A stretch of DNA of 64,000 bases from positions 1,021 through 65,020 of the forward strand of contig JACPRC010000147.1 in NCBI GenBank assembly GCA_016190175.1, given 5' to 3'. This DNA comes from Planctomycetota bacterium. GTDB lineage: Bacteria; Planctomycetota; MHYJ01; JACPRB01. The translations under genes and the position numbers were made by a program. Positions 1-12,403 of the stretch are shown in pieces. The notes under the pieces are model-generated. The model had not been told where the DNA came from, did no database searches, and saw only the letters and a program-made list of their open reading frames with translations. Positions within the stretch are counted from its first letter, which is position 1; every line of letters starts with the position of its first letter.

Positions 1-1713
1 GATCGGCTCTCCGGTCGGGACGCTCCAGATGCGCGCCGTCTTGTCCCAGCCTGCCGTGGCCAGTCGTTTCGAGTCGGGGCTGAACGCGACGCTCTGGACC
101 GTGCCTGAGTGCGGCATGGGCTTTCCGACCGGATCTCCGGTCGAAGCACTCCAGATCCGGGCCGTGCGATCTTTGCTGGCCGTCGCAATCCACAGCCCGT
201 CGGGGCTGAGGATCGCCATCGTGACCGGCTGTTCGTGAACCAGGATCGTCTGGAGTCCCGGCAAGCTCCGCACCGCGCGAACGGCGTTCGCCCGCGCAGG
301 GTCCGAGGCGTGTGCCGAAAAGGACTCGACATGGAAGATCGCCGCCGCGGCATCGTCGCCGGATCCGGCCGCCTGCCGGGCCTGCATGCGATAGACGTGC
401 GAGAGCCGTTCGTTCGCGCGGTCTCTCTCGGTCCGGGTGCGGCGCTGTTCCGCCTCGACCTGTTCCCGCCCTTCCCTCTCCGCCCGCGCCTTCTCCCCCG
501 CGACCCTCGCCGCGTTCTCGGCCTCCCGCTTCGCCCGCAGGAGCTGCCATGTCCCGAACGCCGCCCCGCCCGCGATCGCCAGCACCATCGCCGCCCCGAA
601 CGCCCACAGGAGCGGCTGCTTGCGGATCTTCTTCCCCAGCACGTACGCGAACGTCGGCCGCCGCGCGTGGCGCAGCGGATTGCCGTTCAGGCACGCGTCG
701 AGATCCTCGATCATCTGCGCCGCATCGACGTAGCGGCGCTTCTGGTCCTTCTCCAGCGCCCGGATGATCACCGCCTCCACGTCCGGCGGCGTCGCCGGCG
801 CCAACCGCCGCGGCCACACCAGATCCGCCGTCACCACCTGCGTCAGCACGTCCGCCGAACTCTCCCCCGCGAACGGCGGCCTCCCCGTGAAGAGCTCGTA
901 GAGAATCGCCCCGATCGAGTAGACGTCGCTCTGCGCCGTCGCCTTTCCCCGCGCCTGCTCCGGCGCCATGTAGTTCGGCGTCCCCACCACCACGTTCGTC
1001 CCGGTCAGCGTTTCCCCCTCCACCGACGTCTCCTTCGCCAGCCCGAAATCCATCACGAACACCTGGCCGTTGCGGTCCAGCATCACGTTCGTCGGCTTCA
1101 GGTCCCGGTGGATCACCTTCCGCTCGTGCGCGCACCTCACCGCCTCCGCGATCTTCGCGACGGCGCGCAGCTTCTCCTCCGTCTTCAGCTTCGCCTTCGA
1201 CAACGTCTCCCCGTCCACGAACTGCATCGCGATGAACGGCGACCCGTCCTGCTCCCCGATCTCGTAGATCTTCGCGATGTTCGGATGGTCCAGCGCCGCC
1301 GCGAGCTGCGCCTCCCGCCGGAAGAACGCCCGCGCCTGCTCGTCCCCGATCTGCTTGAGGAACTTCAGCGCCACCCACTGCCGCAGCTCCGGCTCCCATC
1401 CGCGGTAGACAAGCCCCATGCCGCCGGAGCCGAGGGGGGCGACGCGCCAGTAGCGCCCGACGCGGTTCGCCGGGTCCTTCATTGCCTCGGCCGCCTCGGG
1501 TGGGACGGGGCGCGAGGGCGGCTCCTGAAGCTCGCGGAGGCGTTCGGGCGTAAGGGGCAGGTGCGCCAGGAGGCGCGTCCCGGGGTCGCGGTCGCGCGAC
1601 ACCATCGCGGCCTCGACCTGCTCGCGCGTGAGCCACCCGCGATCGACCGCGCGCTTCGCGAGCGCGAAGTCCGCGTCCGAGTCGGGGCCTGTAACGGGAG
1701 CAGTATCGGACAC
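1..1713 (-). CDS. Hanks-type Ser/Thr protein kinase with C-terminal WD40 repeats (partial, runs off window start)
   Basis: Not in the ORF track because it has no stop in the window. Manual minus-strand translation from GTG 1713 gives LGSGGMGLVY, VIHRDLKPTNV, VMDFGLAK, GTPNYMAPEQ, SDVYSIGA, a hydrophobic helix, then a WD40 unit (HSGTVQSVAFSPDSKRLATAGWDKTARIW). Confidence 0.93.
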   Translation of the reverse strand, partial: MSDTAPVTGPDSDADFALAKRAVDRGWLTREQVEAAMVSRDRDPGTRLLAHLPLTPERLRELQEPPSRPVPPEAAEAMKDPANRVGRYWRVAPLGSGGMGLVYRGWEPELRQWVALKFLKQIGDEQARAFFRREAQLAAALDHPNIAKIYEIGEQDGSPFIAMQFVDGETLSKAKLKTEEKLRAVAKIAEAVRCAHERKVIHRDLKPTNVMLDRNGQVFVMDFGLAKETSVEGETLTGTNVVVGTPNYMAPEQARGKATAQSDVYSIGAILYELFTGRPPFAGESSADVLTQVVTADLVWPRRLAPATPPDVEAVIIRALEKDQKRRYVDAAQMIEDLDACLNGNPLRHARRPTFAYVLGKKIRKQPLLWAFGAAMVLAIAGGAAFGTWQLLRAKREAENAARVAGEKARAEREGREQVEAEQRRTRTERDRANERLSHVYRMQARQAAGSGDDAAAAIFHVESFSAHASDPARANAVRAVRSLPGLQTILVHEQPVTMAILSPDGLWIATASKDRTARIWSASTGDPVGKPMPHSGTVQSVAFSPDSKRLATAGWDKTARIWSVPTGEPI

Positions 1714-1901
1714 GATTCGATGGGATTATACCCCGGCAGGGTGCCTTGCGCGGTTCCGGTTCCGGGGATATCATTCCTGGGTCTTTATCCGCAACATCCG
1801 CGCGCCCGATGCGGATACCACTTGGGGTCCGGTGCATTCCCCGATGGGGACGGCAGGGCCGACGGTCGGTTGCGGGCAAGATCCCGCATCAGGGGAGACG
1901 A

Positions 1902-2339
1902 ATGGCGGACGACGCTTCGACGCTCGATCGACGCTCGTTTCTCGCCACGGTCCTGCGCGCCGCCGGCGTGCTGGCGCCCGCTTCGCTCCTCCTGTCCGGC
2001 CGGCTTCCATGGCTCGATGGCGACGAGACCCGGCTGGATGCCGCGCGGGTGCCCGTCTGGCATCCTGAATGCACAGGGACGAACGATCTTCGGTGCGTGA
2101 CCGTCTCCCGCGACCGGGCCGGCGGCTCGCGCTCCGAGATCCGACTCGAGGGCGCGGCGGCCCGCCTCTGGTGCCTCTGCGGCGGACGCTACTCGGAGAC
2201 CGAGCTGGCGGCGCGGGTCGCCGAGGGCGAGCCGTGGGTCGCCCCCTTCCTTTTCGCCCTGTACGCACTCGGGTATCTCGTGCGCCTGAACGCGGAGGAT
2301 CGCGTCGGCCTCTGGAGTCGAGAGGTCGAAATCGCATGA
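1902..2339 (+). CDS. Stand-alone PqqD/RRE-like peptide chaperone with N-terminal twin-arginine (Tat)-like signal
   Basis: ATG 1902 follows GGGGAG. N-terminus has DRRSFL plus a hydrophobic stretch. C-terminus LEGAAARLWCLCGGRYSETELAARV...VAPFLFALYALGYL fits the PqqD winged-helix pattern. ATGA overlap with the next gene. Confidence 0.75.
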   Translation: MADDASTLDRRSFLATVLRAAGVLAPASLLLSGRLPWLDGDETRLDAARVPVWHPECTGTNDLRCVTVSRDRAGGSRSEIRLEGAAARLWCLCGGRYSETELAARVAEGEPWVAPFLFALYALGYLVRLNAEDRVGLWSREVEIA

Positions 2340-3724
2340 CCGACCGGTACGTCCTGACGACCGAGTTCTTCGCGGTCCCGTACTGCGAGGACACGTTCCT
2401 CCTCTACTCGCCGCTCAAGCAGATCCTGATCCTCGCGAACACGGAGATGGTGGACATGGTCGCGGCGCTCCGCGACGGCACGTTCGCCGGCGTGGACGGC
2501 GCCAACATGGACGCGATGCAGCTCCTCCTCGAGTCCGGCGCGATCAACGGCACCCCGGATGAACCGCCGCGGCGTCCGCCGGCGGCCGAGTGGAAGCCCA
2601 CCGAGGTCACGCTCTTCCTCACCAACGCGTGCAACCTCCGCTGCTCCTACTGCTACGCCTCGGGAGGGGATTCCTCCGGCACGATGGAGGTCGCAACCGC
2701 CCTGGCGGCGGTGGACCTCGTCGTCCGCAACGCATCCGAACTGCATGCACCGGAGGTCCGCGTCTCCTACCACGGCGGCGGCGAGCCCACGCTGACATGG
2801 GAAGCGCTGACCGCGAGCGCGCTCCGCGCCGAGGAGTCCGCCGCGCGCCACGGACTGCGCGCTTCGATCAACCTGGCTACCAACGGCGTCATGCCCGCGC
2901 GGAAGGTGGACTGGCTCGTGCGCCACGTCCACGAGTTCTCCGTCTCGTGGGACGGACCCGCGTGGGTGCAGGACCTCCACCGCCCGACGGCCGCGGGCCG
3001 CGGCTCGGCCGAGACGGTCGAGGCCACGATGCGCCATCTCGACAGCCACGGCGCGCGCTGGGGCGTTCGTCTCACCGTCACCGAGACCGGCGTGGACCGA
3101 CTCGAGGAGATCGTCGAGTACCTCCTGCGCCGGTTCTCGCCCTCGACGGTCCACATCGAGCCGCTCTTCGCGCACGGTCGCGCGCGGGAGCGGGGCCTGC
3201 GCGCCCCGCATGCGCGCGCGTTCGTGGAGAACTTCCGGAAGGCGCAGCGCGTCGCCGATCGGCGCGGGATCGACCTCTACTATTCCGGCGCCCGGTCCGA
3301 GCTGGTCACCGACACGTTCTGCGCCGTGCCGGAGGGGACCTTCAACGTCACGCCGGAGGGACTCCTGACGTCGTGCTTCGAAGCCTGCCGTCCGGGCGAC
3401 CCGTTCGTCTACGGCGCGTTCGAAGGCGGCGAATTCAGGATCTCGCGCCCGAAACTCGACGCGCTGGCCGCACACACGGTGGAGGCGCGACCCGAATGCG
3501 CCCGCTGCTTCTGCAAGCGGCACTGCGCCGGCGACTGCGCCGCGAAGAACCTGACGTCGGACCTTCATCCGGACGAGAGACTCAAGGCCGCGCGCTGCGC
3601 GATCAACCAGGAGCTGACCCGCGACCAGCTCGTGCGGCGGCTGCGGGAGAAGAGCCGGATGATGGCGCAGGTAGAGGCCATGCTCGGTGCGCCCCCGGCC
3701 CTCGAGGAGATGCGTCATGCCTGA
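2336..3724 (+). CDS. Radical SAM/SPASM peptide maturase
   Basis: CNLRCSYC (CX3CX2C) and YHGGGEPTL. SPASM cysteines FC..SC..CARCFCKRHCAGDC..RC. N-terminal ~80-aa extension may be an RRE. Confidence 0.93.
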   Translation: MTDRYVLTTEFFAVPYCEDTFLLYSPLKQILILANTEMVDMVAALRDGTFAGVDGANMDAMQLLLESGAINGTPDEPPRRPPAAEWKPTEVTLFLTNACNLRCSYCYASGGDSSGTMEVATALAAVDLVVRNASELHAPEVRVSYHGGGEPTLTWEALTASALRAEESAARHGLRASINLATNGVMPARKVDWLVRHVHEFSVSWDGPAWVQDLHRPTAAGRGSAETVEATMRHLDSHGARWGVRLTVTETGVDRLEEIVEYLLRRFSPSTVHIEPLFAHGRARERGLRAPHARAFVENFRKAQRVADRRGIDLYYSGARSELVTDTFCAVPEGTFNVTPEGLLTSCFEACRPGDPFVYGAFEGGEFRISRPKLDALAAHTVEARPECARCFCKRHCAGDCAAKNLTSDLHPDERLKAARCAINQELTRDQLVRRLREKSRMMAQVEAMLGAPPALEEMRHA

Positions 3725-4094
3725 TCCCAACGACTTCGCGCCGCGCCAGTCCGGGAAGGAGAAGCGCAAGGGCCCGAAGGCCCACGCGTTCGTGAAGCCG
3801 GACCTCGAGGTCCACATCGACGAGCGGCAGCTCCAGCGCAAGGACGACGACCTCGTGCTCGTCTGCCGGTGCGACACCGTCTGCACCTGCAACACGGTCG
3901 TCACCGGCCGCACGCGCTGCCGCTGCGACACGGTGTCGAAGTGCACCTGCGAGGCGGTCCAGACCTGCACCTGCAACACGGTGATGGTCTGCTCCTGCGA
4001 TTCCGTGAAGAAGAGCTCGTGCAGTTGCGACAGCCATTCGCCGGGCGGGGGCGGCTCGCGCGTGTGCCGCTGCGTCCCGGTCCGGGCGCATTGA
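3717..4094 (+). CDS. Putative RiPP precursor (125 aa): charged leader with FVKPDL motif, core with 8 CxC repeats (16 Cys)
   Basis: GAGGAG RBS before ATG 3717 and 8-nt overlap with the rSAM gene. Core units CRCDTV, CTCNTV, CRCDTV, CTCEAV, CTCNTV, CSCDSV, CSCDSH, CRCVPV. Lies between two rSAM/SPASM genes. Confidence 0.85.
   Translation: MPDPNDFAPRQSGKEKRKGPKAHAFVKPDLEVHIDERQLQRKDDDLVLVCRCDTVCTCNTVVTGRTRCRCDTVSKCTCEAVQTCTCNTVMVCSCDSVKKSSCSCDSHSPGGGGSRVCRCVPVRAH
3864..4082 (+). repeat. Eight degenerate 18-bp coding repeats (TGC-NNN-TGC-...) within the precursor core
   Basis: e.g. tgccggtgcgacaccgtc, tgcacctgcaacacggtc, tgccgctgcgacacggtg, tgcacctgcaacacggtg. Confidence 0.85.
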
Positions 4095-4101
4095 GCCGGA
4101 T

Positions 4102-5211
4102 ATGACCAAACCGGGAACGATGGCGAAGGACGGGACGCTCTACGACCCCGTCGCGGACTTCCGCTTCCGCCCCGGCCCGGACGACCGCGCGTGGGACGGA
4201 GGCCGGCTGCGGTTCGACCGCTACCACGCGGCGCAGCGGTTCCGCCCGCATCAGGACGGTCGCGAGGTCAATCTGGAGATCAACTACCTCTGCCGCTACG
4301 CGTGCCGCCACTGCTTCCAATCGCTCCGGCCCGATTCGTATCCCGAGGCGACGCCCGATGCGGCGGCCGTGATCGCCGCGGCGGAGCGCGTCGCGGCGGC
4401 CGAGGAGATCTCGATCACGGGCGGCGACATCTTCCTCCAGCCGGCGGTCTGGGAGGCGCTCGACTTCCTGCAGGAGCGCGCGCCCCGCGCGACGATCCGG
4501 CTCCTCGTGAACGGCGGCGGATTCGACGACGAAGTCCGCCGGCGCCTGGCGCGACTCGAAGGGCGGCGGATCATCGTCAAGTCGGACTTCTACGGGCACA
4601 ATCCCCGCCTCCACGACGAGTTCACCGGCGTGCCGGGTTCGTTCGACCGTCTTGTCCGCATCGCGCGGTTCCTCCGCGAGACCGGGATCGCGTTCGTCGC
4701 CGCGGCGGCGCTGACCCGCGCGGACTTCGAGACGCGCTTCGAGCTGGTCGGATTCCTCGGCGATCTCACCGAGGATCGATTCACCGTCGCGTCCGCGATC
4801 CACCCGGGTCGCTCCGCCGACGAGGCGCGTCTCCTGCCGGAGCAGTTCGCGGAGCTCATGGAGGAGCGGTTCTTCGCGCCGCTGGCCGCGGAGTATCACT
4901 CGTTCGAGCCGCAGTGCGCCGGCGACTGCCAGTTCGCGGTCGTGTCTGCGAACGGAAAGGCGTGGGGTTGCTCGTTCCTGAAGCTCGACTCGGAGCCGAT
5001 CGCCGCCTGGCGCGAGCGGGCCGTCGCGGCCGCGTCCACGGCGGACTGCGCGACCTGCTCGGCCCGCGCCACGTGTCGCCGATGCCCCTCCTTCCTCGCG
5101 GCCCGGGATTCCTATTGCCGCTTCGTGCGGCTCGCGCATCCGGGTCTCCTCGAGCGCGTCCGCCGCGCGCAAGAGGAAGGCTTCGCGTTCGTCCATCCCG
5201 GGAGATCGTGA
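4102..5211 (+). CDS. Second radical SAM/SPASM enzyme (PqqE-like)
   Basis: CRYACRHC, ITGGD and HDEFTGVPGSF. C-terminal CAGDC..GC..CATCSARATCRRC..YC SPASM motif. Confidence 0.9.
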   Translation: MTKPGTMAKDGTLYDPVADFRFRPGPDDRAWDGGRLRFDRYHAAQRFRPHQDGREVNLEINYLCRYACRHCFQSLRPDSYPEATPDAAAVIAAAERVAAAEEISITGGDIFLQPAVWEALDFLQERAPRATIRLLVNGGGFDDEVRRRLARLEGRRIIVKSDFYGHNPRLHDEFTGVPGSFDRLVRIARFLRETGIAFVAAAALTRADFETRFELVGFLGDLTEDRFTVASAIHPGRSADEARLLPEQFAELMEERFFAPLAAEYHSFEPQCAGDCQFAVVSANGKAWGCSFLKLDSEPIAAWRERAVAAASTADCATCSARATCRRCPSFLAARDSYCRFVRLAHPGLLERVRRAQEEGFAFVHPGRS

Positions 5212-5214
5212 ACC

Positions 5215-5460
5215 ATGGCGACACAGGGATCGAACAAGGACGCCGCGCTGGGATGCGGATGTCTGATCCTCATCCTCGTCGCCGTCGTGGTCCTCGTCCT
5301 CAAGGGATGCTCGGGCTGCGGCTGCAGCCGGAAGTCCGAACCCCAATCCAAGTACGAGAACACGCGCAAGGTCGAGCAGGTCCGGGAGGAAGAGCCCGAG
5401 AAGATCCAGAAGAATGAAAGCCGGTACGATCGGGTCCCGCGATCGAAGGTCAAGAAATGA
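5215..5460 (+). CDS. Small single-pass membrane protein with Cys clusters flanking the TM helix
   Basis: GCGC-LILILVAVVVLVLK-GCSGCGC followed by a charged tail. 3-nt gap upstream, ATGA overlap downstream. Confidence 0.7.
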   Translation: MATQGSNKDAALGCGCLILILVAVVVLVLKGCSGCGCSRKSEPQSKYENTRKVEQVREEEPEKIQKNESRYDRVPRSKVKK

Positions 5461-6902
5461 GATGCGCGCTGGTCCGTCCCGCCCACCGCTCCTCGGGCTA
5501 CGACGAGGGGACGCAGGAATGCCTCGGGATCGGCTACGTCGGCGCCGTCCTGCGGGAGCGCGGACACGAGGTCGTCGTCGTGGACGCCGAGATGGAGAAG
5601 CTGGCGGACCGCGAGGCTTTCGAGCGCGTGGCCGCGTCCGATCCCGGCCTGATCGGTTTCTCCGTGATGAGCGAGGACGCGCTGGACAGCCTGCGACGGC
5701 TCGCGCGCGACCTGCGGGAGGCGTTTCCGCGGGCGCATCTCACCGCGGGAGGCAACCTGCCCAGCTTCGACCCCGAGTGGATCCTGCGGCTCTGCCCCGG
5801 CATCGACAGCGTGATCCGATTCGAGGGCGAGCGACCGCTGCTGGAACTCGCCGAACGACTCCGGAGCGGGAGGGACTTCCGGGCCGTTCCGCCGGCGGCA
5901 TCCGTGGACGACCTGGACGCGCTGCCGTTCCCGATCCGCGACACGCTGCCCATCGCGCTGAAGAACGGGTGGATGGCGCCCATCTCGTCGAGCCGCGGGT
6001 GCCACGCGAGGTGCTCCTTCTGCGCCGTGCATCGCTTCAACCTCGATCCCGCACGACCCTGGCGGTTCCGCAGTCCCGCCGGGGTCGCGGACGAGATCGA
6101 CGGGCTCGTCGCGGACTTCGGCGTCCGCGAGGTCAACTTCGTGGACGACGATTTCATCGGCAACCGGAAGCAGGGGCAGCCGCGCGCGCGCGAGCTGGCC
6201 GCCGAGTTGATCCGCCGCGGATTGAAAGTCGGTTTCTCGCTGCAGTGCCGCGCCGAGTGGATCGATCGCGCCACCTTCCGCCCGCTCAAGGCCGCCGGGC
6301 TCCGGATGGTCTTCTTCGGCGTCGAGGCCGTGGACGAGGAGAGCCGCCGGAGATACGGGAAGCCGCAGTCGCGCGAGCTCGTGCGGCGCACGCTGGAGCT
6401 GCTCGACGAGCTGGACGTGTACGCCCACGTCGGCTTCATCATGTTCAACCCCTGGACCCGCCTGGAGGACGTGCGCGAGGCCGTGGAGTTCCTGCGCGAC
6501 ATCGGCCATCTCAACATCCACACCGCGACGAATTTCCTCCAGTTGAGTCCGGGGACGCCGCTGCTGGAACCGCTCGCCGCCGGCGGCATGGCGTTCCGCG
6601 AGCCGCACGGAGGCTACCGCTGGTCGTTCGCCGATCCCCGCACCGCGTCGGTGAAGGCGGTCTTCGATCGCGTGCTCTGGCCGCAGTTCCCCGCCTGGTA
6701 CGAGTCGCTGATGGCGAAGTGGAGCGTGCTGACGGCGCGGCGGTCGGACGAACGATGCGCGCATGACCTGCGCCGCATGGACGACCTCGTCCACGATGTG
6801 GCGATCCGCACGCTCGACGCGATCGAGTCGGACCCCGGGGTCGATCTCTTCGCGCTGGTGCGCGAGCTTTCGGAAAGGACGGCATGCGCAGCGCGCTCCT
6901 GA
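5457..6902 (+). CDS. Cobalamin (B12)-binding radical SAM enzyme (class B methyltransferase-like)
   Basis: N-terminal B12-binding domain (LGIGYVGAVLRERGHEV, GGNLPS, FEGE). SSRGCHARCSFC, FVDDDF, FFGVE, GFIMFNP. Confidence 0.93.
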   Translation: MRCALVRPAHRSSGYDEGTQECLGIGYVGAVLRERGHEVVVVDAEMEKLADREAFERVAASDPGLIGFSVMSEDALDSLRRLARDLREAFPRAHLTAGGNLPSFDPEWILRLCPGIDSVIRFEGERPLLELAERLRSGRDFRAVPPAASVDDLDALPFPIRDTLPIALKNGWMAPISSSRGCHARCSFCAVHRFNLDPARPWRFRSPAGVADEIDGLVADFGVREVNFVDDDFIGNRKQGQPRARELAAELIRRGLKVGFSLQCRAEWIDRATFRPLKAAGLRMVFFGVEAVDEESRRRYGKPQSRELVRRTLELLDELDVYAHVGFIMFNPWTRLEDVREAVEFLRDIGHLNIHTATNFLQLSPGTPLLEPLAAGGMAFREPHGGYRWSFADPRTASVKAVFDRVLWPQFPAWYESLMAKWSVLTARRSDERCAHDLRRMDDLVHDVAIRTLDAIESDPGVDLFALVRELSERTACAARS

Positions 6903-8002
6903 TCGCCTGTCTTCTCGCGCAGGACCCGGCGGAGGATTTCGCGCGGGCCGTCTCCGAGATGAAGGCGAAGCGATGGGAGGAGGGGCGCGCCATCCTGGAC
7001 CGGCTCGTCCGCGCGCGGCCGGACGACCACGAGGCGCGCAACAACCTCGCGGTCTGTCTCATCAAGCTCCGCCGCTACGGCGAGGCGGAGTTCCACCTTC
7101 TGCGGGTTCTCCGGGCGGCGCCCGACAAGGCGGGGAGTCACTTGAACTTGGGCGTGGCTCGCCAGGGGAATTCGCAGACGGATCTGGCGTTGAAGGACAC
7201 GGATCGGGCCGTCGACATGGGCAAGGCGCAGCGGCCGCCGACGCCGGACCAGACCGCGGCCGCGCTCTTCAATCGAGGGTGGCTCCTCGACGAGCTTGAG
7301 CGGTACGAGGACGCGGTCGCGGCCTACAAGGAGGCCCTCGGGCTGCGTCCCGAATATCCCCGCGCGTGGCTCGGACTGGCCGTCGCGTACGCGAAGATGG
7401 GACGGTACAAGGACGCCCGCGAGGCGCTTCGGGAGGCGAAGAGCCGGGAGCGGCTCGATCCCGAGATCGCCCCGCTGATCGAGCGGAACGGAATCGTCAT
7501 CGCGGAGATCGAGACGGAGATCGCCCCCGCTCCGTCCCGAATCGCGATTCCGTCGCCTGATCCGGCCCCCGCGGCCGCCCCGCGCCGCACGTTCTTCGCC
7601 GACGGGATGATCGGCGTGACGGGACTGTGGGATCGATCGAGGGGCTGGTCCGTCTTCGGATACGCGCTGCTCCACTGCGTGCTCCTGGGCGCGGCGCTGG
7701 CGCTGCTCGGGTCGCGGCAGCGCGGCGCCTCCGCGCTCTTCGGGGGCGCGGCCGTCCTGCTATTCCTGACGAGCTGGGGGTTCGCGGGTTGGGGCAAGTG
7801 GGGCGGGCTGCTCCTCGCGGCGGCGGTCAGCGTCGCGGCGGCGGAGCTGATGCGGGCGCGCGCGAGGGCGGCGCCGGTCCCCGCGGCGCCCACCCACATC
7901 GCCTGGGAGTGCGCGGACTGCGGAAGGAAGCTGCGCGCGGCGGCGGAGATGGCGGGCAAGTCGATCCGGTGCCCGCAGTGCGGTTGCGTGAAGAGGTTGT
8001 AG
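6884..8002 (+). CDS. TPR-repeat membrane protein with C-terminal zinc ribbon
   Basis: Signal-like N-terminus, about 5 TPR units (ARNNLAVCL, SHLNLGVA, ALFNRGWL, AWLGLAVA), Pro-rich linker, about 3 TM segments, then CADC...CPQC. Overlaps the B12-rSAM gene by 19 nt. Confidence 0.8.
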   Translation: MRSALLIACLLAQDPAEDFARAVSEMKAKRWEEGRAILDRLVRARPDDHEARNNLAVCLIKLRRYGEAEFHLLRVLRAAPDKAGSHLNLGVARQGNSQTDLALKDTDRAVDMGKAQRPPTPDQTAAALFNRGWLLDELERYEDAVAAYKEALGLRPEYPRAWLGLAVAYAKMGRYKDAREALREAKSRERLDPEIAPLIERNGIVIAEIETEIAPAPSRIAIPSPDPAPAAAPRRTFFADGMIGVTGLWDRSRGWSVFGYALLHCVLLGAALALLGSRQRGASALFGGAAVLLFLTSWGFAGWGKWGGLLLAAAVSVAAAELMRARARAAPVPAAPTHIAWECADCGRKLRAAAEMAGKSIRCPQCGCVKRL

Positions 8003-8003
8003 G

Positions 8004-8360
8004 CTACGTTCGGGACCAGAGCCCGACGCGGTTCCCGTTGGGGTCGCGGAAGATCGCGAAGAAGCCCCACTCGGGCCCCACCTGGGTCTTCTCCTGGACG
8101 ACCGACCCGCCCGCGGCGCGCACCTCGTCCAGCGTCGCAGGAATGTCCGCCACTTTGAGGTAGATGAGGATCCCGCCGTCGACCACCGGCTTCCTCGGAT
8201 CCAGTCCGCCTTCGAGCGAGTTCTCGCCGGTGCGGAAGATGCGGTAGTCGCCCGAAGGCGCGACGGTCCATCCGAAGACCGCGTGGTAGAAAGTCCCGGC
8301 TTTCCCGAGATCGGGTGCGGGGATTTCGAGGTAGCAGATGGGGGCGGGCGCGTCAGCCAT
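8004..8360 (-). CDS. VOC/glyoxalase-bleomycin resistance family protein
   Basis: ICYLEIPAPD..FYHAVFGW..IYLKVADI..AAGG..FRDPNGNRVGL. Confidence 0.9.
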   Translation of the reverse strand: MADAPAPICYLEIPAPDLGKAGTFYHAVFGWTVAPSGDYRIFRTGENSLEGGLDPRKPVVDGGILIYLKVADIPATLDEVRAAGGSVVQEKTQVGPEWGFFAIFRDPNGNRVGLWSRT

Positions 8361-8387
8361 TCCAGTCCTCCTCTCGTGCGTATGCGC

Positions 8388-8825
8388 TCATGCGGCGTTG
8401 CGCTGCGGGATGGGCCAGTTCGCGACCCCGGATATCATGAAGAGGTAGCCGCCCAGCGCGGCCATCGGGTGCAGAATCACGACCGACCTCCCGGATTCCG
8501 GATCGAGCCCCAGCGACGTGATGCCGAGGTCGCGGCCGAACGCGAGGAGAAGGAGACTTGCGGCGACCATCAGGCCGGCCCACAGCGGCGTCGCGGTCCA
8601 GAGGCGGGAGACCGGGCGGAACCTCAGGACGAGGCCCGCCCCGAGGGAAAGAAGGACGGACAGCGCGCTTCCGATGGCGGCCATGAAGGGCATGAGAATC
8701 ATGGAAAGAGGTCCGTCGTAGAACTGCTCGATCCAGGCAACCATATAGACCGCCCAGGCGAGCCAGAACGCCAGCGCGACCGAGATGGAGCGCCACAGCA
8801 GATTCCACCAGGGATCGCCGCGCAT
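8388..8825 (-). CDS. Hypothetical membrane protein (~4 TM)
   Basis: Hydrophobic ORF. Start placed at ATG 8825, 7 nt after a TAGGAT -10-like hexamer. Confidence 0.6.
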   Translation of the reverse strand: MRGDPWWNLLWRSISVALAFWLAWAVYMVAWIEQFYDGPLSMILMPFMAAIGSALSVLLSLGAGLVLRFRPVSRLWTATPLWAGLMVAASLLLLAFGRDLGITSLGLDPESGRSVVILHPMAALGGYLFMISGVANWPIPQRNAA

Positions 8826-8954
8826 CGACGCCATCCTACTGCATGACGGGCAAGATGTCGCCGCTTCCGGAGACCCGATTGGAGGAAGGCACGAATAAGG
8901 GCTTGTCCTGCGTAGCGCCACTGCCCGAGCGAAGCGAGGATGCGCGAAGCAGGA

Positions 8955-9029
8955 TCGGGGCGGCGGGATTTGAACCCACGACCTCTTGGTCCCGAACCAA
9001 GCGCTCTAGCCAGACTGAGCCACGCCCCG
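8955..9029 (-). tRNA. tRNA-Pro (anticodon CGG), CCA not encoded
   Basis: CGGGGCGTGGCTCAGTCTGGCTAGAGCGCTTGGTTCGGGACCAAGAGGTCGTGGGTTCAAATCCCGCCGCCCCGA forms a cloverleaf with GTTCAAATC T-loop and CTTGG/CCAAG anticodon stem. Confidence 0.97.
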
Positions 9030-9045
9030 GTGCCGAGGGAGCCGG

Positions 9046-9074
9046 ATTATAGGCCCGCAGTCGCAGGACTGCAA
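9046..9074 (-). promoter_or_regulatory. sigma70-type promoter of tRNA-Pro
   Basis: TTGCAG-17 nt-TATAAT on the minus strand just upstream of the tRNA. Confidence 0.75.
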
Positions 9075-9106
9075 GCGATAGTCGGCGTCCGCGAGGGCCT
9101 TCGGCA

Positions 9107-9164
9107 ATCAGCCGTCAGCCTTCAGCCCCCCCGCTGATGGCTGAAGGCTGATACCTGACGGCTG
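9107..9164. repeat. Inverted heptamer tandem array (TCAGCC-type)
   Basis: tcagccgtcagccttcagcc ... gctgatggctgaaggctga...ggctga. Confidence 0.8.
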
Positions 9165-9220
9165 AAATAAAACCGCCCAGAAGTACCTGCGCGGGAGAGG
9201 TGTCAGCGTACTCTGGGCGG
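9165..9220 (-). terminator. Intrinsic terminator-like hairpin
   Basis: CCGCCCAGA/TCTGGGCGG stem extended by GTAC pairing, followed by TTTTATTT on the minus strand. Confidence 0.75.
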
Positions 9221-9340
9221 ACAGCTGGGGTGGGGTATAGGCTAAGAAATCCCGGCGACGTCCCCTTTCCGGCACGCGGCGGGGAGAGCCTCAAGGACCG
9301 CGAGCTTCCCTCTCCCCTCCATTCCCGTGCCCCTCTCTAC
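9165..9340 (-). ncRNA. Candidate structured small RNA (~175 nt), family unassigned
   Basis: Bounded by its own promoter (9347-9374) and terminator. Nested stems GGCACG/CGTGCC and GGGGAGAG/CTCTCCCC. Confidence 0.5.
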
Positions 9341-9346
9341 GCCAGA

Positions 9347-9374
9347 AGTATAAACTACGAATTGTATTTGTCAA
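9347..9374 (-). promoter_or_regulatory. Near-consensus sigma70 promoter
   Basis: TTGACA-16 nt-TATACT on the minus strand. The -35 is half of an inverted repeat TGTCAA-N7-TTGACA (9369-9387). Confidence 0.7.
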
Positions 9375-9435
9375 CATATCTTTGACATTTGTGGAAAGTC
9401 GGAGGGAGGCGGAGTCCGGAGGCAAGAGCCGGCGG

Positions 9436-11013
9436 CTACGAAAGGACGACGCTGCGGATGTCGAGCGGCTGCACCGACTTGCGGATCTCCTCCAGCGCGG
9501 CGGCCGTCGCGGCGTCGTCGAGCGTGAGGAGGATCGCCGCCTGCTGGCCGCGCCCCGTCCGCCCCACCTCCATCCGCGCGATGTTGATCCCGTGGTTCCC
9601 CAGGATCGTGCCGACCTTGCCCACGACGCCCGGCACGTCGGGATATTGAATGAAGAGCATGTACTTCGACGGACGCAGGTCGATGTCCAGCGTGTTGATC
9701 TGCGTGATCCGCGGCTCCTTGCCCTCGAAGAGCGTCCCGGCGACCAGCCGCCCTCCGCGGTCCGTCTCCACGCGCACGATCATCTGGCTCTTGTAGTTCC
9801 GCGCGTCCTTGCGGCGCTCCTCGGCCACGGAGACGCCCCGCTCCTTCGCCGTGAGCCGGGCGTTGACCACGGTCACCTCGTCCCCGAGGGCGGGGTGCAG
9901 CACCCCCTTGACCGCCGCCTGCGTGACTGCGTCCACGTCGAATCCCGCGATCTGCCCCATGTACGTGATCTCGACGCCGCGGACCCCGCCGTCGGAGAGC
10001 TGCACGGCCATCGACCCGAGATCCTCCGCGAGCCGCACGTAGAGCGCGATCGACGGGTCGCCGATCGACGCCAGGTTCGTCGCGTTGCGGACGACGCCGC
10101 TGCGGAAATAGTCGACGAACTGATGTGCGATGTCGATCGCCACCTGGAGCTGGGCCTCCTGCGTCGACGCCGCGAGGTGCGGAGTCAGCGTGACCTTCTC
10201 GTTGCCCAGGAGCGGCAGGTCCTTCGGCGGCGGCTCGTTCTCGAAGACGTCGAGAGCCGCGCCCGCGATCTGGCCCGACAGGAGCGCCTCGTGCAGCGCC
10301 TTCTCGTCCACGATCCCGCCGCGCGACGTGTTCACGAGACGCGCCGTCTTCTTCATCCTCGCGAATTCTCCCGCCCCGAACATCCCCTTCGTGCGCTCGT
10401 TCAGCGGGACGTGGATCGTGACGAAGTCCGCCTCCGCGAGGAGTTTGTCGAACTCGAGGAGCTGGACGCCGAGAACCTCCGCGCGCTCGCGGACCAGGAG
10501 CGGATCGTACGCGACGACGCGCATGTGGAACGCCTTCCCGTACGCCGCCATGCAGCCCCCGATCTTCCCGAGTCCGACGATCCCCAGCGTCTTGCCCTCG
10601 AGCTGCACGCCCGTGTGGGTCGACCGCTCCCATCGTCCCGCGCGCATGGACGCGTCCGCGCGCGCGACGTTCCGCGCGTTCGCCAGGAGGAGCGCCAGCG
10701 CGTGCTCCGCCGCCGCGGTGACGTTGCCCAGCGGCGCGTTCATCACGATGATCCCGCGCCGCGTGGCCGCCTCCTGGTCGATGTTGTCCACGCCGATCCC
10801 CGCGCGGCCGACGATCTTGAGGCTCCGTCCCGCCTCGACGATCTCCTTCGTCACCTTGACGGCGCTGCGGACGATGAGCCCCTCGTACGGCGCGACCGCG
10901 AGCTTCAGATCCTCCGGCTTCATCTTTCCGCGGTGATCGCATTCGATCCCCGCCTCCCGGAGGATCCGGGCGCAATCCTCGGCGACTTCGTCGGCGATCA
11001 GGACTTTCGGCAT
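9436..11013 (-). CDS. serA: D-3-phosphoglycerate dehydrogenase (long form, ASB+ACT)
   Basis: GRAGIGVDNID, GIVGLGKIG, LVNTSRGG, ALDVF, TPHLAAST, C-terminal ACT domain (DVPGVVG). Confidence 0.96.
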   Translation of the reverse strand: MPKVLIADEVAEDCARILREAGIECDHRGKMKPEDLKLAVAPYEGLIVRSAVKVTKEIVEAGRSLKIVGRAGIGVDNIDQEAATRRGIIVMNAPLGNVTAAAEHALALLLANARNVARADASMRAGRWERSTHTGVQLEGKTLGIVGLGKIGGCMAAYGKAFHMRVVAYDPLLVRERAEVLGVQLLEFDKLLAEADFVTIHVPLNERTKGMFGAGEFARMKKTARLVNTSRGGIVDEKALHEALLSGQIAGAALDVFENEPPPKDLPLLGNEKVTLTPHLAASTQEAQLQVAIDIAHQFVDYFRSGVVRNATNLASIGDPSIALYVRLAEDLGSMAVQLSDGGVRGVEITYMGQIAGFDVDAVTQAAVKGVLHPALGDEVTVVNARLTAKERGVSVAEERRKDARNYKSQMIVRVETDRGGRLVAGTLFEGKEPRITQINTLDIDLRPSKYMLFIQYPDVPGVVGKVGTILGNHGINIARMEVGRTGRGQQAAILLTLDDAATAAALEEIRKSVQPLDIRSVVLS

Positions 11014-11026
11014 GGCCCGGTGCGCC

Positions 11027-12403
11027 TCACTTTCTCACGGGCGTGACCTCGACCTTCACGGGCTGCCCGTACAGATCCGTGATCCTCGCGCAGAACCGCC
11101 ACTGGTCCGCGTTGTTCTCCACCTTCACGACGAGCAGGTTGCGCCCCTCCCGGAGCGGCATCCGGATGCAGTGGCGATCCGCCTCGAGCCCGCGGTGCTC
11201 GTGCTCGAAGTGCACCGTCTGCCCGTTCAGGAGGACCTTCGCGCTCGCGTCCTCCCCGAGGAAGAGCTTCACCCACTGGCGCTTCTTCGAGTAGACGTGC
11301 GTCGCCGCGTAGTAGATCCCGCGCGGGTTCCCCTTCGCGTGCGCCAGCAGGTCCACGACGTCCGTCCGGCTCTGCGCCAGTTCCCATCCCCGCAGGTCGA
11401 GATCGTCGCTCCCTTCCGCGACCAGCTCCGCCGACAGCCCGCGGTCCTCCCGGTTCTCGAAACGCGGCGAGAGGAGCCAGGTGCGGATGAACGGCGCCTG
11501 CGGCCGGCAGACGACCTCGCGCCACATCTGGGACGTGAAGTGGTCCTCCGCGTAGTGGCGGCGCCACGGGATCTCGTCCGCGCCCTCGACCTTCGGGCCG
11601 CCGTAGCAGGCGTCGTTCCTCATCTGGTTCGCGTCCGGAGCCCACACGACGTCCGGAAGGCCCGCGCGGCGGCGGACGAGCTGCACCGCATCCCACAGCC
11701 AGACCAGGAACTCCCATCCCCCCACGCCGGAATTCGATTCGGCCGCCTGGGCGCTCCACAGGAAGTTCGCATAGAGCATCCCCCGGAAGTTCGGCTCCGC
11801 GCGGAGCTGCCGATCCACGGGGAGTCCCTCCGCGACCAGGAGGTAGACCAGCACCAGGTCGAAATCGCCGTCCTTCAGCCTGGCGAGGCGGTTGCGCTCC
11901 AGGTCGTCGGGGTGCAGCCAGACGCCGGCGTCCGCCGGCGTGAGCGAGCGCACCTCCTCCTCGAGCGACACGACCTTGCCGTCGATCTTGACCATGCCGC
12001 GGGTCGATTCCCACACCGCGCGCTGGAACGCCTCGAACCCCTTCTGCACGTTGCGGGCGGTCGCGTCGGTCACGCGGTACCGGCAGACCTTCTGGTCGGC
12101 CGTCCGGTAGTTGACGTTGCGCGGCAGGAGCGCGAGGACTCGCCACCGGCCCGCCTTCGCCTCGTCCGCGTTCGGCGGGATCCTCTCATGGAGCCGGTGC
12201 AGCCGCCTGCGTGCCTCGATGCGCTCGTCGTTCGTCGCCCGGCAGGCGTCGAAGACCCGCTCGTAGCGGTAGAGCGCATCGGTCAGGCTGTCGGGGTCCT
12301 TTTCGAGGAAGGCGCCGGCCCGGAGGTGAAAAGCGGCGCGCGTCTCGTCCTCCTCCGCGGGGTCCTGGAGGAGGAGCAGGAGAACGGCGAAGGCGCCGGT
12401 CAT
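11027..12403 (-). CDS. Hypothetical exported protein with C-terminal beta-sandwich domain
   Basis: Short hydrophobic N-terminus (LLLLQD). C-terminal YYAATHVYS..LFLGEDASAKVLLNG..LREGRNLLVVKV pattern. Sits tightly between efp and serA. Confidence 0.7.
   Translation of the reverse strand: MTGAFAVLLLLLQDPAEEDETRAAFHLRAGAFLEKDPDSLTDALYRYERVFDACRATNDERIEARRRLHRLHERIPPNADEAKAGRWRVLALLPRNVNYRTADQKVCRYRVTDATARNVQKGFEAFQRAVWESTRGMVKIDGKVVSLEEEVRSLTPADAGVWLHPDDLERNRLARLKDGDFDLVLVYLLVAEGLPVDRQLRAEPNFRGMLYANFLWSAQAAESNSGVGGWEFLVWLWDAVQLVRRRAGLPDVVWAPDANQMRNDACYGGPKVEGADEIPWRRHYAEDHFTSQMWREVVCRPQAPFIRTWLLSPRFENREDRGLSAELVAEGSDDLDLRGWELAQSRTDVVDLLAHAKGNPRGIYYAATHVYSKKRQWVKLFLGEDASAKVLLNGQTVHFEHEHRGLEADRHCIRMPLREGRNLLVVKVENNADQWRFCARITDLYGQPVKVEVTPVRK

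Follow-up and report, generated by a model that had tools for sequence, protein, structure and literature searches.

A 64,000-nucleotide stretch of a planctomycete genome (assembly GCA_016190175.1, contig JACPRC010000147.1, positions 1,021 to 65,020), hereafter called the window, carries seven co-oriented genes, g1 to g7, at positions 1902-8002 of its plus strand (open reading frame (ORF) list of 1-12000; Table 1). One of them, g3, encodes a short cysteine-rich peptide. Around it lie genes for three radical S-adenosylmethionine (SAM) enzymes, for a protein that resembles the recognition elements (RREs) in pathways for ribosomally made, post-translationally modified peptides (RiPPs), and for two membrane proteins. 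We consider it very likely that g1-g7 are a maturation operon and that g3 is the substrate of g2. An earlier note on this DNA had described seven co-oriented genes and the way in which they join, and the ORF list agrees with it exactly: from g1 to g7 there are an ATGA overlap (2336-2339), an 8-nucleotide overlap, gaps of 7 and 3 nucleotides, a second ATGA overlap (5457-5460) and a 19-nucleotide overlap. The genes flanking the set on both sides are on the minus strand. The overlaps and short gaps, together with these neighbours on the opposite strand, delimit g1-g7 as a translationally coupled unit and, with the synteny of g2 to g7 in a second planctomycete described below, uphold the proposal of a single operon. 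Gene starts were picked by their fit to homolog alignments and, for g1, also by a GGGGAG just 5' of the ATG at 1902. A scan for promoters and terminators yielded nothing useful within the unit; its two terminator-like matches were fewer than those in shuffled sequences.

Table 1. Genes of the g1-g7 unit, their neighbours in the window, and selected genes of related loci (positions are those of the window unless a locus is named).
Feature	Position	Strand	Description
g1	1902-2339	+	145 residues; putative twin-arginine signal, then PqqD/RRE-like domain
g2	2336-3724	+	462 residues; radical SAM enzyme with SPASM-type C-terminal Cys pattern; presumed core maturase
g3	3717-4094	+	125-residue Cys-repeat precursor
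g4	4102-5211	+	369 residues; second radical SAM enzyme; C-terminal 8-Cys SPASM/twitch-like pattern; lacks an N-terminal extension
g5	5215-5460	+	81 residues; single transmembrane helix; charged C-terminal tail
g6	5457-6902	+	481 residues; class B (B12-binding) radical SAM enzyme
g7	6884-8002	+	372 residues; TPR membrane protein
Ser/Thr protein kinase with C-terminal WD40 repeats	1-1713	-	divergent from the operon; extends past the window start
Glyoxalase-family gene	8004-8360	-	downstream neighbour; followed by a membrane-protein gene
tRNA-Pro (CGG)	8955-9029	-	about 950 nucleotides downstream of the operon
D-3-phosphoglycerate dehydrogenase-type gene	9436-11013	-	further downstream
Peptidase-U32-family gene	L006 12745-14292; L011 4797-5711; L017 10645-11661		located after the B12-radical SAM gene; present in each of these Bacillota loci
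WD40-type precursor	L004 8792-10198; also L005, L007-L010, L012, L016, L019, L020		beside g2-like paralogs, a MoaA-like enzyme and an RR-motif RRE-fold protein

The predicted g3 product falls into two parts. Approximately residues 1-49 (nucleotides 3717-3863) form a leader free of cysteine, and residues 50-125 form a 76-residue core with 16 cysteines arranged as eight CxC units, mostly CxC[D/N/E]xV, together with a GGGG linker and the tail CRCVPVRAH. Hydropathy reveals no hydrophobic segment in g3, and neither Pfam nor NCBIfam contains a match to it. With 125 residues and 16 cysteines it is not a SCIFF peptide, for which about 45 residues and six cysteines are expected. The ESM Atlas gave no usable feature match for g3, and its structure rows, from a poor model, had TM values below 0.4. 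Tandem Repeats Finder detected no DNA tandem repeat beneath the peptide repeats, and the repeats are, to judge from sequence, maintained at the protein level. The 12 g3 homologs present among 5.8 billion clustered metagenome proteins keep the leader, the repeats and the tail while varying in unit number, which bears out the proposal of a leader/core precursor beside radical SAM maturases. The conserved leader of the family reads P-N-D-F-x-P-K ... F-V-K-P-x-[LM]-E-V-x-I-D-E; the family alignment (A2) leaves out P0009-P0013 to gain conserved columns.

The repeat unit is highly regular. Across 255 CxC units from 30 proteins, position 2 is T, S or R and position 5 is mostly T or S; position 4 is D, N, E or Q in 218 units, and position 6 is V in 179. 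Each protein has 5-15 units, and of the 226 intervals that separate successive units, 166 span 6 or 8 residues. (The locus L003, whose contig, matched by its length of 50479 bases, also encodes P0006, was omitted from the repeat counts and from the twin-arginine counts given below.) It follows from these statistics that both invariant cysteines have a conserved residue at i+3: D/N/E4 for C1 and V6 for C3. A [D/N]-x-x-C pairing directed toward the next unit is a possible alternative, and there is precedent for beta-thioethers of the NxxC type.

The three enzymes g2, g4 and g6 all match the Radical_SAM family of Pfam (PF04055), and g6 also matches the B12-binding family (PF02310), so the earlier prediction of three radical SAM enzymes, one of them of the B12 type, holds. 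The translation of g2 contains the radical SAM motif C-NLR-C-SY-C (CX3CX2C) and then C-x13-G-x4-C ... C-x2-C-x5-C-x3-C ... C, a complete SPASM seven-cysteine auxiliary-cluster motif. The translation of g4 contains C-x3-C-x2-C and eight C-terminal cysteines in a pattern similar to that of g2. The Pfam SPASM model reports neither protein at E≤0.01; the SPASM assignment is based on full-length alignment to SPASM maturase models for g2 and on the cysteine patterns in the translations for both. The best NCBIfam match of g2 is PapB (NF047865), whose model aligns over positions 4-323 of 330 and scores 114.3 bits, below its cut-off of 340. QhpD (TIGR03906; 94.4 bits, cut-off 453), the SCIFF maturase (TIGR03974; 89.6 bits, cut-off 425) and the CrpC-type family (TIGR04463; 59.1 bits, cut-off 525) also score below their cut-offs, and the nif11 maturase is another of the top sub-cut-off matches. 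PapB is likewise the top curated family for all seven g2-like enzymes scanned from related loci (67-127 bits, below 340). The solved structure nearest to g2 by sequence is 5wgg/5why (E 3.4e-14); relevant sections of PMC13692751 name 5WHY as CteB.

The other two enzymes also score far below curated NCBIfam cut-offs. The top NCBIfam match of g4, the GeoRSP system radical SAM protein (TIGR04303), reaches 53.9 bits against a cut-off of 400; its PDB matches are weak, and its ESM Atlas neighbours are generic radical SAM/SPASM proteins. Among the CxC loci examined, only L003 encodes a g4 homolog. Both signature domains of a class B radical SAM enzyme are above cut-off in g6 (PF02310, 74.6 bits against 32.1; PF04055, 66.7 bits against 29.5). 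Its best NCBIfam match is BchE (110 bits, cut-off 481) and its best PDB match OxsB (5ul2), and the RiPP C-methyltransferase families TIGR03975 (47.0 bits, cut-off 281.85) and ApyD (NF050148; 71.7 bits, cut-off 750) both fall below cut-off. No protein of g1-g7 reaches any curated NCBIfam cut-off, and motif and keyword searches of the literature returned no description of the family, although Supplemental Data set 1 of PMC13692751, which covers bacterial RS-associated Cys-rich proteins, could list members. This agrees with the earlier opinion that the cluster belongs to no recognised class. Curated memberships considered for the radical SAM enzymes and rejected as sub-cut-off were CXXX-repeat, Cys-every-fifth, CcpM, Clo7bot, GeoRSP, HxsB/C, mycofactocin and geopeptide.

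How do these proteins compare with known systems? PapB (freyrasin) and CteB/SCIFF resemble g2: they have a CX3CX2C motif and SPASM-type cysteines, and they stand next to a cysteine-rich precursor with repeated Cys...Asp-type motifs. The PapB motif is CX3D, whereas the unit here is a 6- or 8-residue CxC[D/N/E]xV with two cysteines. The present system differs further in encoding another SPASM-type enzyme, a B12 enzyme, a putative RRE with a twin-arginine (RR) signal, and membrane partners. The second comparison is with CrpC of Methanococcus voltae (TIGR04463), a radical SAM/SPASM enzyme that, as relevant sections of PMC13692751 describe, forms ranthionine-type bridges on CrpA, a long, repetitive, cysteine-rich protein with a leader-like region at its N-terminus. 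The same sections localise CrpC-dependent -2 Da changes to the CrpA motifs CAVD, PCAGD and CPLVL/CPLV and note a C-x-x-Q/D repeat motif. CAVD and CPLV have the i+3 spacing that we propose for g3. However, CrpA is archaeal and has a 17-residue motif repeated ten times, and the relevant sections of that paper mention neither a Tat (twin-arginine translocation) signal nor a B12 enzyme.

Because the nearest characterised enzymes, PapB, CteB, QhpD and CrpC, all form thioethers, we infer Cys-D/N/E and Cys-V bridges in g3, and we favour non-alpha thioether chemistry on this peptide with moderate confidence. The cysteines might instead stay largely free and bind metal or Fe-S, as in metallothioneins, while the radical SAM enzymes carry out epimerisation, C-methylation of Val or Thr, or C-C linkage. 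CxC is a classic metal-binding spacing, the g3 tail ends in His and is preceded by the GGGG linker, and only about half of the 16 cysteines could pair with D/N/E acceptors. Nevertheless, we rate free cysteines as very improbable: every top-scoring characterised relative of g2 forms thioethers from Cys, both invariant cysteines have a conserved i+3 partner that matches the modified CrpA motifs, and metal-binding peptides have no need of leader/RRE logic. In the free-cysteine scheme, the conserved Val and Thr might be acted on by the B12 enzyme or by a SPASM enzyme that modifies Val. There is a poly-cyclopropylglycine precedent (PMC9062424).

The cluster is not confined to the window. Scanning one genome per species with two repeat patterns returned 18 loci. 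One of them (L003), in another Planctomycetota metagenome-assembled genome (MAG), keeps the order g2-g7 with identities of 67, 62, 57, 39, 66 and 40%, on a contig that ends inside g2 and so does not extend to g1; a scan of metagenome contigs gave the L003 record as its sole match. The other 17 loci belong to Bacteroidota, Bacillota, Chloroflexota, Methylococcaceae, Polyangiaceae, Acidobacteriota/Aminicenantes and Calditrichota, with one unclassified, which brings the total to about eight phyla; part of these 17 placements was checked and part is presumed. A g2 homolog (E<1e-4) adjoins the repeat ORF in 17 of the 18 loci, the exception (L015) being a 1.9-kb contig, and many CxC loci have two or three g2 paralogs. 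In five genomes with a CxC locus, all eight g2-like matches (E≤1e-20) lie inside that locus.

We also approached the association from the enzyme side. Among 400 other genomes of the Lachnospiraceae-MAG order (Bacillota), two have a close maturase homolog (64-74% identity), and both (L032 and L033) encode an adjacent 11-unit CxC peptide ending CSCVPVH. Among 400 other genomes of the window's phylum, three have a g2 homolog at E≤1e-40, all distant (33-38% identity); the same-genus and same-family genomes in that survey have none at this threshold. None of the three distant homologs has the canonical repeat beside it, and one (L028) has a related Cys-rich peptide. The earlier note had named homologous enzymes lacking a CxC neighbour as what would refute its proposal. 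In these surveys every close g2 homolog had the peptide beside it, and distant homologs can thus occur without it. Within lineages the system has a patchy occurrence and is rare. Its sequences nonetheless identify a conserved, so far uncharacterised family that extends across phyla and is neither a chance arrangement nor an isolated oddity.

Two loci of the window's phylum deserve separate description. In L028 (genome G376), a Cys-rich ORF at 9539-9952 on the minus strand ends CQCDCQCVAHRHR and lies directly upstream of a 37%-identical g2 homolog. This ORF, ending CPACPCQCDCQCVAHRHR, may represent a sister precursor family with contiguous C-x-C-x-C spacing. In L027 (G092:C448, window's phylum), three g2-like paralogs lie at 2497-10402 on the minus strand of one 10.9-kb contig, which has no ORF with at least three CxC units; their substrate may be encoded outside this contig or belong to a different type.

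The N-terminus of g1, the first product of the operon, reads DRRSFL(A), and hydropathy places a hydrophobic stretch at residues 13-32. Tat signals have an S/T-R-R-x-F-L-K-type motif followed by a moderately hydrophobic stretch, and g1 has both elements. TatC is encoded on another contig of the window's own genome. Searching 1.84 billion representatives with HMMER returned 12 proteins, including g1, at E≤0.001, and a word-index search added P0015 (38% identity), which matches Pfam PqqD (PF05402) at 28.9 bits against a cut-off of 23.4. The g1 counterpart in L006 has a faint PqqD match (E 0.055). We aligned 12 sequences (A4), namely g1, ten of the searched homologs and the L006 protein, omitting P0018 (3090 residues) and P0026 (959 residues) as multi-domain proteins. 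R10 and R11 are nearly invariant in this alignment, and a P-x-W-H-P-x-C-S-G motif and the helix start A-R-L-W-C-L-C-G-G are conserved. An AlphaFold2 model of g1 (pLDDT, its predicted score in the local distance difference test, 76) has four strands (residues 49-83) and then three helices. The RREs TruD, TbiB1 (TM-target 0.70, root-mean-square deviation 2.6, 85 columns), PbtF and lasso B1 appear near the top of its Foldseek comparison with the PDB, with E-values of 0.007-0.07.

The best reading of these predictions is that g1 combines an RR signal with an RRE-like domain, as the earlier note had suggested. Its modelled fold may correspond to the small winged-helix leader-binding fold of PqqD and lasso B1 (TbiB1); unlike them, it has an N-terminal twin-arginine signal and the P-x-W-H-P-x-C-S-G motif. 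Our literature search found, among the papers listed, none combining 'twin-arginine' with RRE terms. Complex prediction for g1 (residues 40-145) with the g3 leader (residues 1-52) gave scores of 0.01 and 0.00, which are neutral either way.

Comparison of the related loci goes beyond the earlier note, in that by sequence the cluster is part of a broad superfamily, in most members of which the repeats sit in a C-terminal domain of Tat-signal proteins and not in a small peptide. The short-peptide architecture is found in the window, in L003, in the Bacillota loci L006, L011 and L017, and in two enzyme-first loci. These precursors have 125-190 residues and no signal, and they end C-x-C-[V/A]-P-V-(0-2 residues)-H. 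Homologs of g6 occur in four of the four other loci with a VPV..H/APVH tail that were searched (L003, L006, L011 and L017) and are absent from all 14 with other tails, a count that excludes L032 and L033. Because the B12 enzyme co-varies with one tail motif, the assignment of this enzyme to its substrate is tractable. A TPR membrane protein or lipoprotein partner recurs in the short-peptide loci. Some U32 relatives are oxygen-independent hydroxylases, and the U32-family gene of the three Bacillota loci (Table 1) may encode either a leader protease or such a hydroxylase.

In the 13 loci of the second architecture, the repeats lie at the C-terminal end of a larger protein, whose start has a leader-like motif, RR-x-F, a hydrophobic stretch and often a lipobox-like Cys. 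Most of these fused proteins have WD40 repeats and a terminal H-Y-W-Y-P-N sequence or one very similar to it. Three g2-like paralogs, a small MoaA-like radical SAM enzyme (10 loci) and two more conserved genes are common to the fused-type loci. The aromatic tail and beta-propeller of the WD40-type proteins resemble quinoprotein subunits by analogy.

Signals of the Tat type are frequent in this superfamily. RR-x-F within the first 140 residues, with a hydrophobic stretch, is present in 13 of 17 precursors; the exceptions are the three Bacillota short peptides and the N-terminally truncated L015. In 11 of these 13, the motif P-[EKQA]-[IVL]-[YFIKS]-x-[IVLF] begins 14-17 residues before RR, and in eight the distance is exactly 16. 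A similar motif is present in the Bacillota leaders (P-E-I-x-[VI]-I), and a looser one, P-K-A-H-A-F-V, in the leader of g3. L006 (Acutalibacteraceae) encodes a 127-residue protein with a canonical RR signal that matches the hidden Markov model of the g1 family, though it is itself a row of A4. Immediately upstream of this RR-signal RRE-like protein are two adjacent TatC genes, 5486-6160 and 6153-6704 (Pfam, 99 and 87 bits). Six WD40/fused-type loci encode a conserved protein of 140-150 residues with an invariant R-R-x-F-F. For the model of this protein (pLDDT 77.7), the top Foldseek matches are TbiB1, lasso B1 and PqqD (TM-target 0.59-0.75, E 0.0035-0.012), and its profile aligns with the g1 family over 124 columns (hhalign, 62.8% probability, E 7e-5). 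The tie of a Tat signal to the family, a signal that the earlier note had mentioned without explaining it, therefore appears, from these sequences, to be systematic.

Two features of the relatives speak to how targeting and modification may be related. The Tat-type signal that the substrate bears in 13 of 17 relatives would suit a module that is cross-linked and folded before its export. The fixed distance between leader motif and RR in the fused precursors points to coordination of leader binding with Tat targeting. Chaperones of the TorD/DmsD type keep hold of Tat signal peptides until the cofactor has been loaded, and the relatives' leader motif could gate the signal much as these proofreading chaperones do, an analogy of mechanism only.

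The remaining two genes, g5 and g7, encode candidate membrane partners. The single helix of g5 is flanked by GCGC and CSGCGC in the translation and hydropathy profile. No family reaches its cut-off in Pfam or NCBIfam for g5, which is conserved in L003 (E 4.6e-16, 39% identity). Echoing the CxC theme, g5 could be a second substrate or a metal/cluster site. g7 has TPR repeats at approximately residues 11-200 (Pfam TPR), two hydrophobic helices at 254-302 and a CxxC...CxxC zinc-ribbon-like C-terminal end, of which residues 340-368 give a weak zinc-ribbon match in NCBIfam (E 0.0047). A g7 homolog is present in L003, and the TPR proteins of L011 and L017 weakly match that homolog.

We propose the following scheme. 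In a first step, g2 would recognise the g3 leader through a short beta-strand-like motif, P-x-[IVA]-x-x-[FIV]-[VI], common to the superfamily. By 5'-deoxyadenosyl radical chemistry it would then join Cys sulfur to a side-chain carbon at i+3. With two such pairs per unit (C1-D/N/E4 and C3-V6), small thioether rings would overlap one another along the 76-residue core. In a second step, g4, which lacks a leader-binding extension, would rely on the putative RRE of g1 acting in trans and would add a second ring type or another cross-link, while g6 would tailor the tail C-x-C-V-P-V-x-x-H, with C-methylation as the probable change. The cytoplasm is where radical SAM enzymes act, and the third step, the least certain, would take the rigid folded product out through Tat. 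In hitchhiker export a protein without a signal crosses the membrane with a signal-bearing partner, as the hydrogenase large and small subunits do. Since g3 has no signal of its own, g1 would hold the leader and carry g3 across as a hitchhiker, with g5 and g7 as membrane partners. As an alternative to carriage, the RR segment of g1 may anchor or dock the maturation complex at the membrane or at TatBC.

As a whole, one operon that matures a ribosomal Cys-repeat peptide, with thioether chemistry and Tat-linked export, is our preferred explanation and a probable one; Tat-coupled export through g1, taken as a separate proposition, is more tentative and in our judgement somewhat doubtful. A number of observations count against this explanation. 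All radical SAM family matches are far under curated cut-offs, which makes transfer of function weak, and the sequence is compatible with alpha (sactionine), beta/gamma (ranthionine), C-C or other cross-links. Class B radical SAM enzymes also include non-methylating members, of which BchE and OxsB, the top matches of g6, are examples, and the multiply crosslinked, methylated product proposed in the earlier note is a prediction. g1 itself matches no PqqD, Pfam or NCBIfam model even at E≤1; its Foldseek comparison has no match at E≤0.001, and rank 1 is GdmN, whose PDB title does not name an RRE. Profile comparison revealed no similarity between g2-type N-termini and the g1 family, and we accordingly make no claim that the g2 N-terminal domain is an RRE. 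In g7 only two helices exceed the hydropathy threshold, and the N-terminus is too short for a signal-peptide call. As the earlier note had observed, no peptidase or ABC (ATP-binding cassette) exporter is encoded in g1-g7 or the immediate flanks; with no protease in the unit, release of a small peptide product is not assured. In the six fused-locus RR proteins, RR is followed by a short segment of rather polar character, unlike a typical export signal. L011 and L017 encode RRE-like partners that lack an RR signal, so that RR on the RRE is not universal in short-peptide loci.

The last two points also favour a different role for the g1 signal. Maturation could proceed as proposed with no hitchhiking, the RR and hydrophobic N-terminus of g1 serving as a membrane anchor or assembly tag that holds the leader-binding domain, and through it g2, g4 and g6, at the membrane near g5 and g7; the product would then stay cell-associated or leave by an unlinked route. 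That the operon encodes the membrane proteins g5 and g7, and that the window's unit encodes no export component, suits such an anchor. We consider it unlikely, although to be taken seriously, since the motif of the g1 family is canonical, with hardly any variation at R10 and R11, and is accompanied by a hydrophobic stretch of 20 residues, and two TatC genes lie directly beside the RR-signal RRE protein of L006. Moreover, the Tat-type signal on most substrates argues that the modified module acts outside the cytoplasm.

In a further alternative there is no natural product. The Cys-repeat module could be a protein-derived cofactor or a structural subunit of an extracytoplasmic enzyme, like the gamma subunit of quinohemoprotein amine dehydrogenase, with g3 a stand-alone version docking on a partner encoded elsewhere. 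The parts of PMC7876137 on this system describe QhpD as forming Cys-to-Asp/Glu thioethers in the cytoplasm on a leader-bearing small subunit that is later periplasmic; QhpC has three such thioethers, made before periplasmic translocation. QhpD is indeed among the top matches of g2, but at 94.4 bits it is far under the QhpD cut-off. In most relatives the repeats are fused to Tat-signal, WD40 beta-propeller-type proteins with the aromatic H-Y-W-Y-P-N tail, and no leader protease is encoded in the window, both of which would fit a subunit. By contrast, g3 contains no Trp, the variable number of 5-15 units suits a repeat scaffold better than a single cofactor site, and Pfam and NCBIfam identify no dehydrogenase, cytochrome, flavoprotein monooxygenase or subtilisin-like protease in the operon. 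QhpC differs further, according to the same parts of PMC7876137, in its cleavage by a subtilisin-like protease, its export by an ABC transporter (not Tat) and its tryptophylquinone, and g1-g7 include no other qhp-like genes. We regard the cofactor explanation as improbable and retain the operon for maturation, and possibly Tat-linked export, of a Cys-repeat peptide as the preferred one.

The surroundings of the operon are listed in Table 1. No functional link between the upstream kinase-WD40 gene and the g1-g7 cluster is apparent from sequence. Taken together, the tRNA-Pro gene and the cluster's patchy occurrence could be a sign that it was acquired by transfer (integrase genes and repeats were not searched for). 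The window's stretch is present in four DNA runs of one groundwater-metagenome study, with no RNA run listed, which has no bearing on expression. The source genome is an incomplete MAG (64%), in which there is no second copy of g3.

What would these proteins mean for RiPP biology? Thioether chemistry by radical SAM/SPASM enzymes on Cys-rich substrates is already known. The precursor motif, the gene set, the RR-signal RRE, the pairing of a B12 enzyme with one tail, and the fused Tat-WD40 substrates appear to be new, as they were found neither in curated families nor in the searchable literature. If the proposed chemistry is true, dense overlapping small rings, with two cysteines per six residues in 5-15 units, would be a new type of scaffold. 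If the link to Tat is true, it would provide a route by which rigid peptides or domains, cross-linked in the cytoplasm, reach the cell envelope without a dedicated ABC exporter, and full-size lipoproteins of Bacteroidota, Chloroflexota and other phyla would join the proteins whose domains undergo RiPP-type maturation. Most speculatively, and with rather low odds in our estimation, CxC[D/N]xV repeats may mark a class, spanning phyla and so far unrecognised, of modules that radical SAM enzymes cross-link in the cytoplasm and that then leave through Tat in folded form, with RR-RRE proteins coupling completion to export by signal gating or hitchhiking. Such a class would bring a new logic of export to ribosomal peptide products, and its extracytoplasmic domains, built post-translationally, would also be new in kind.

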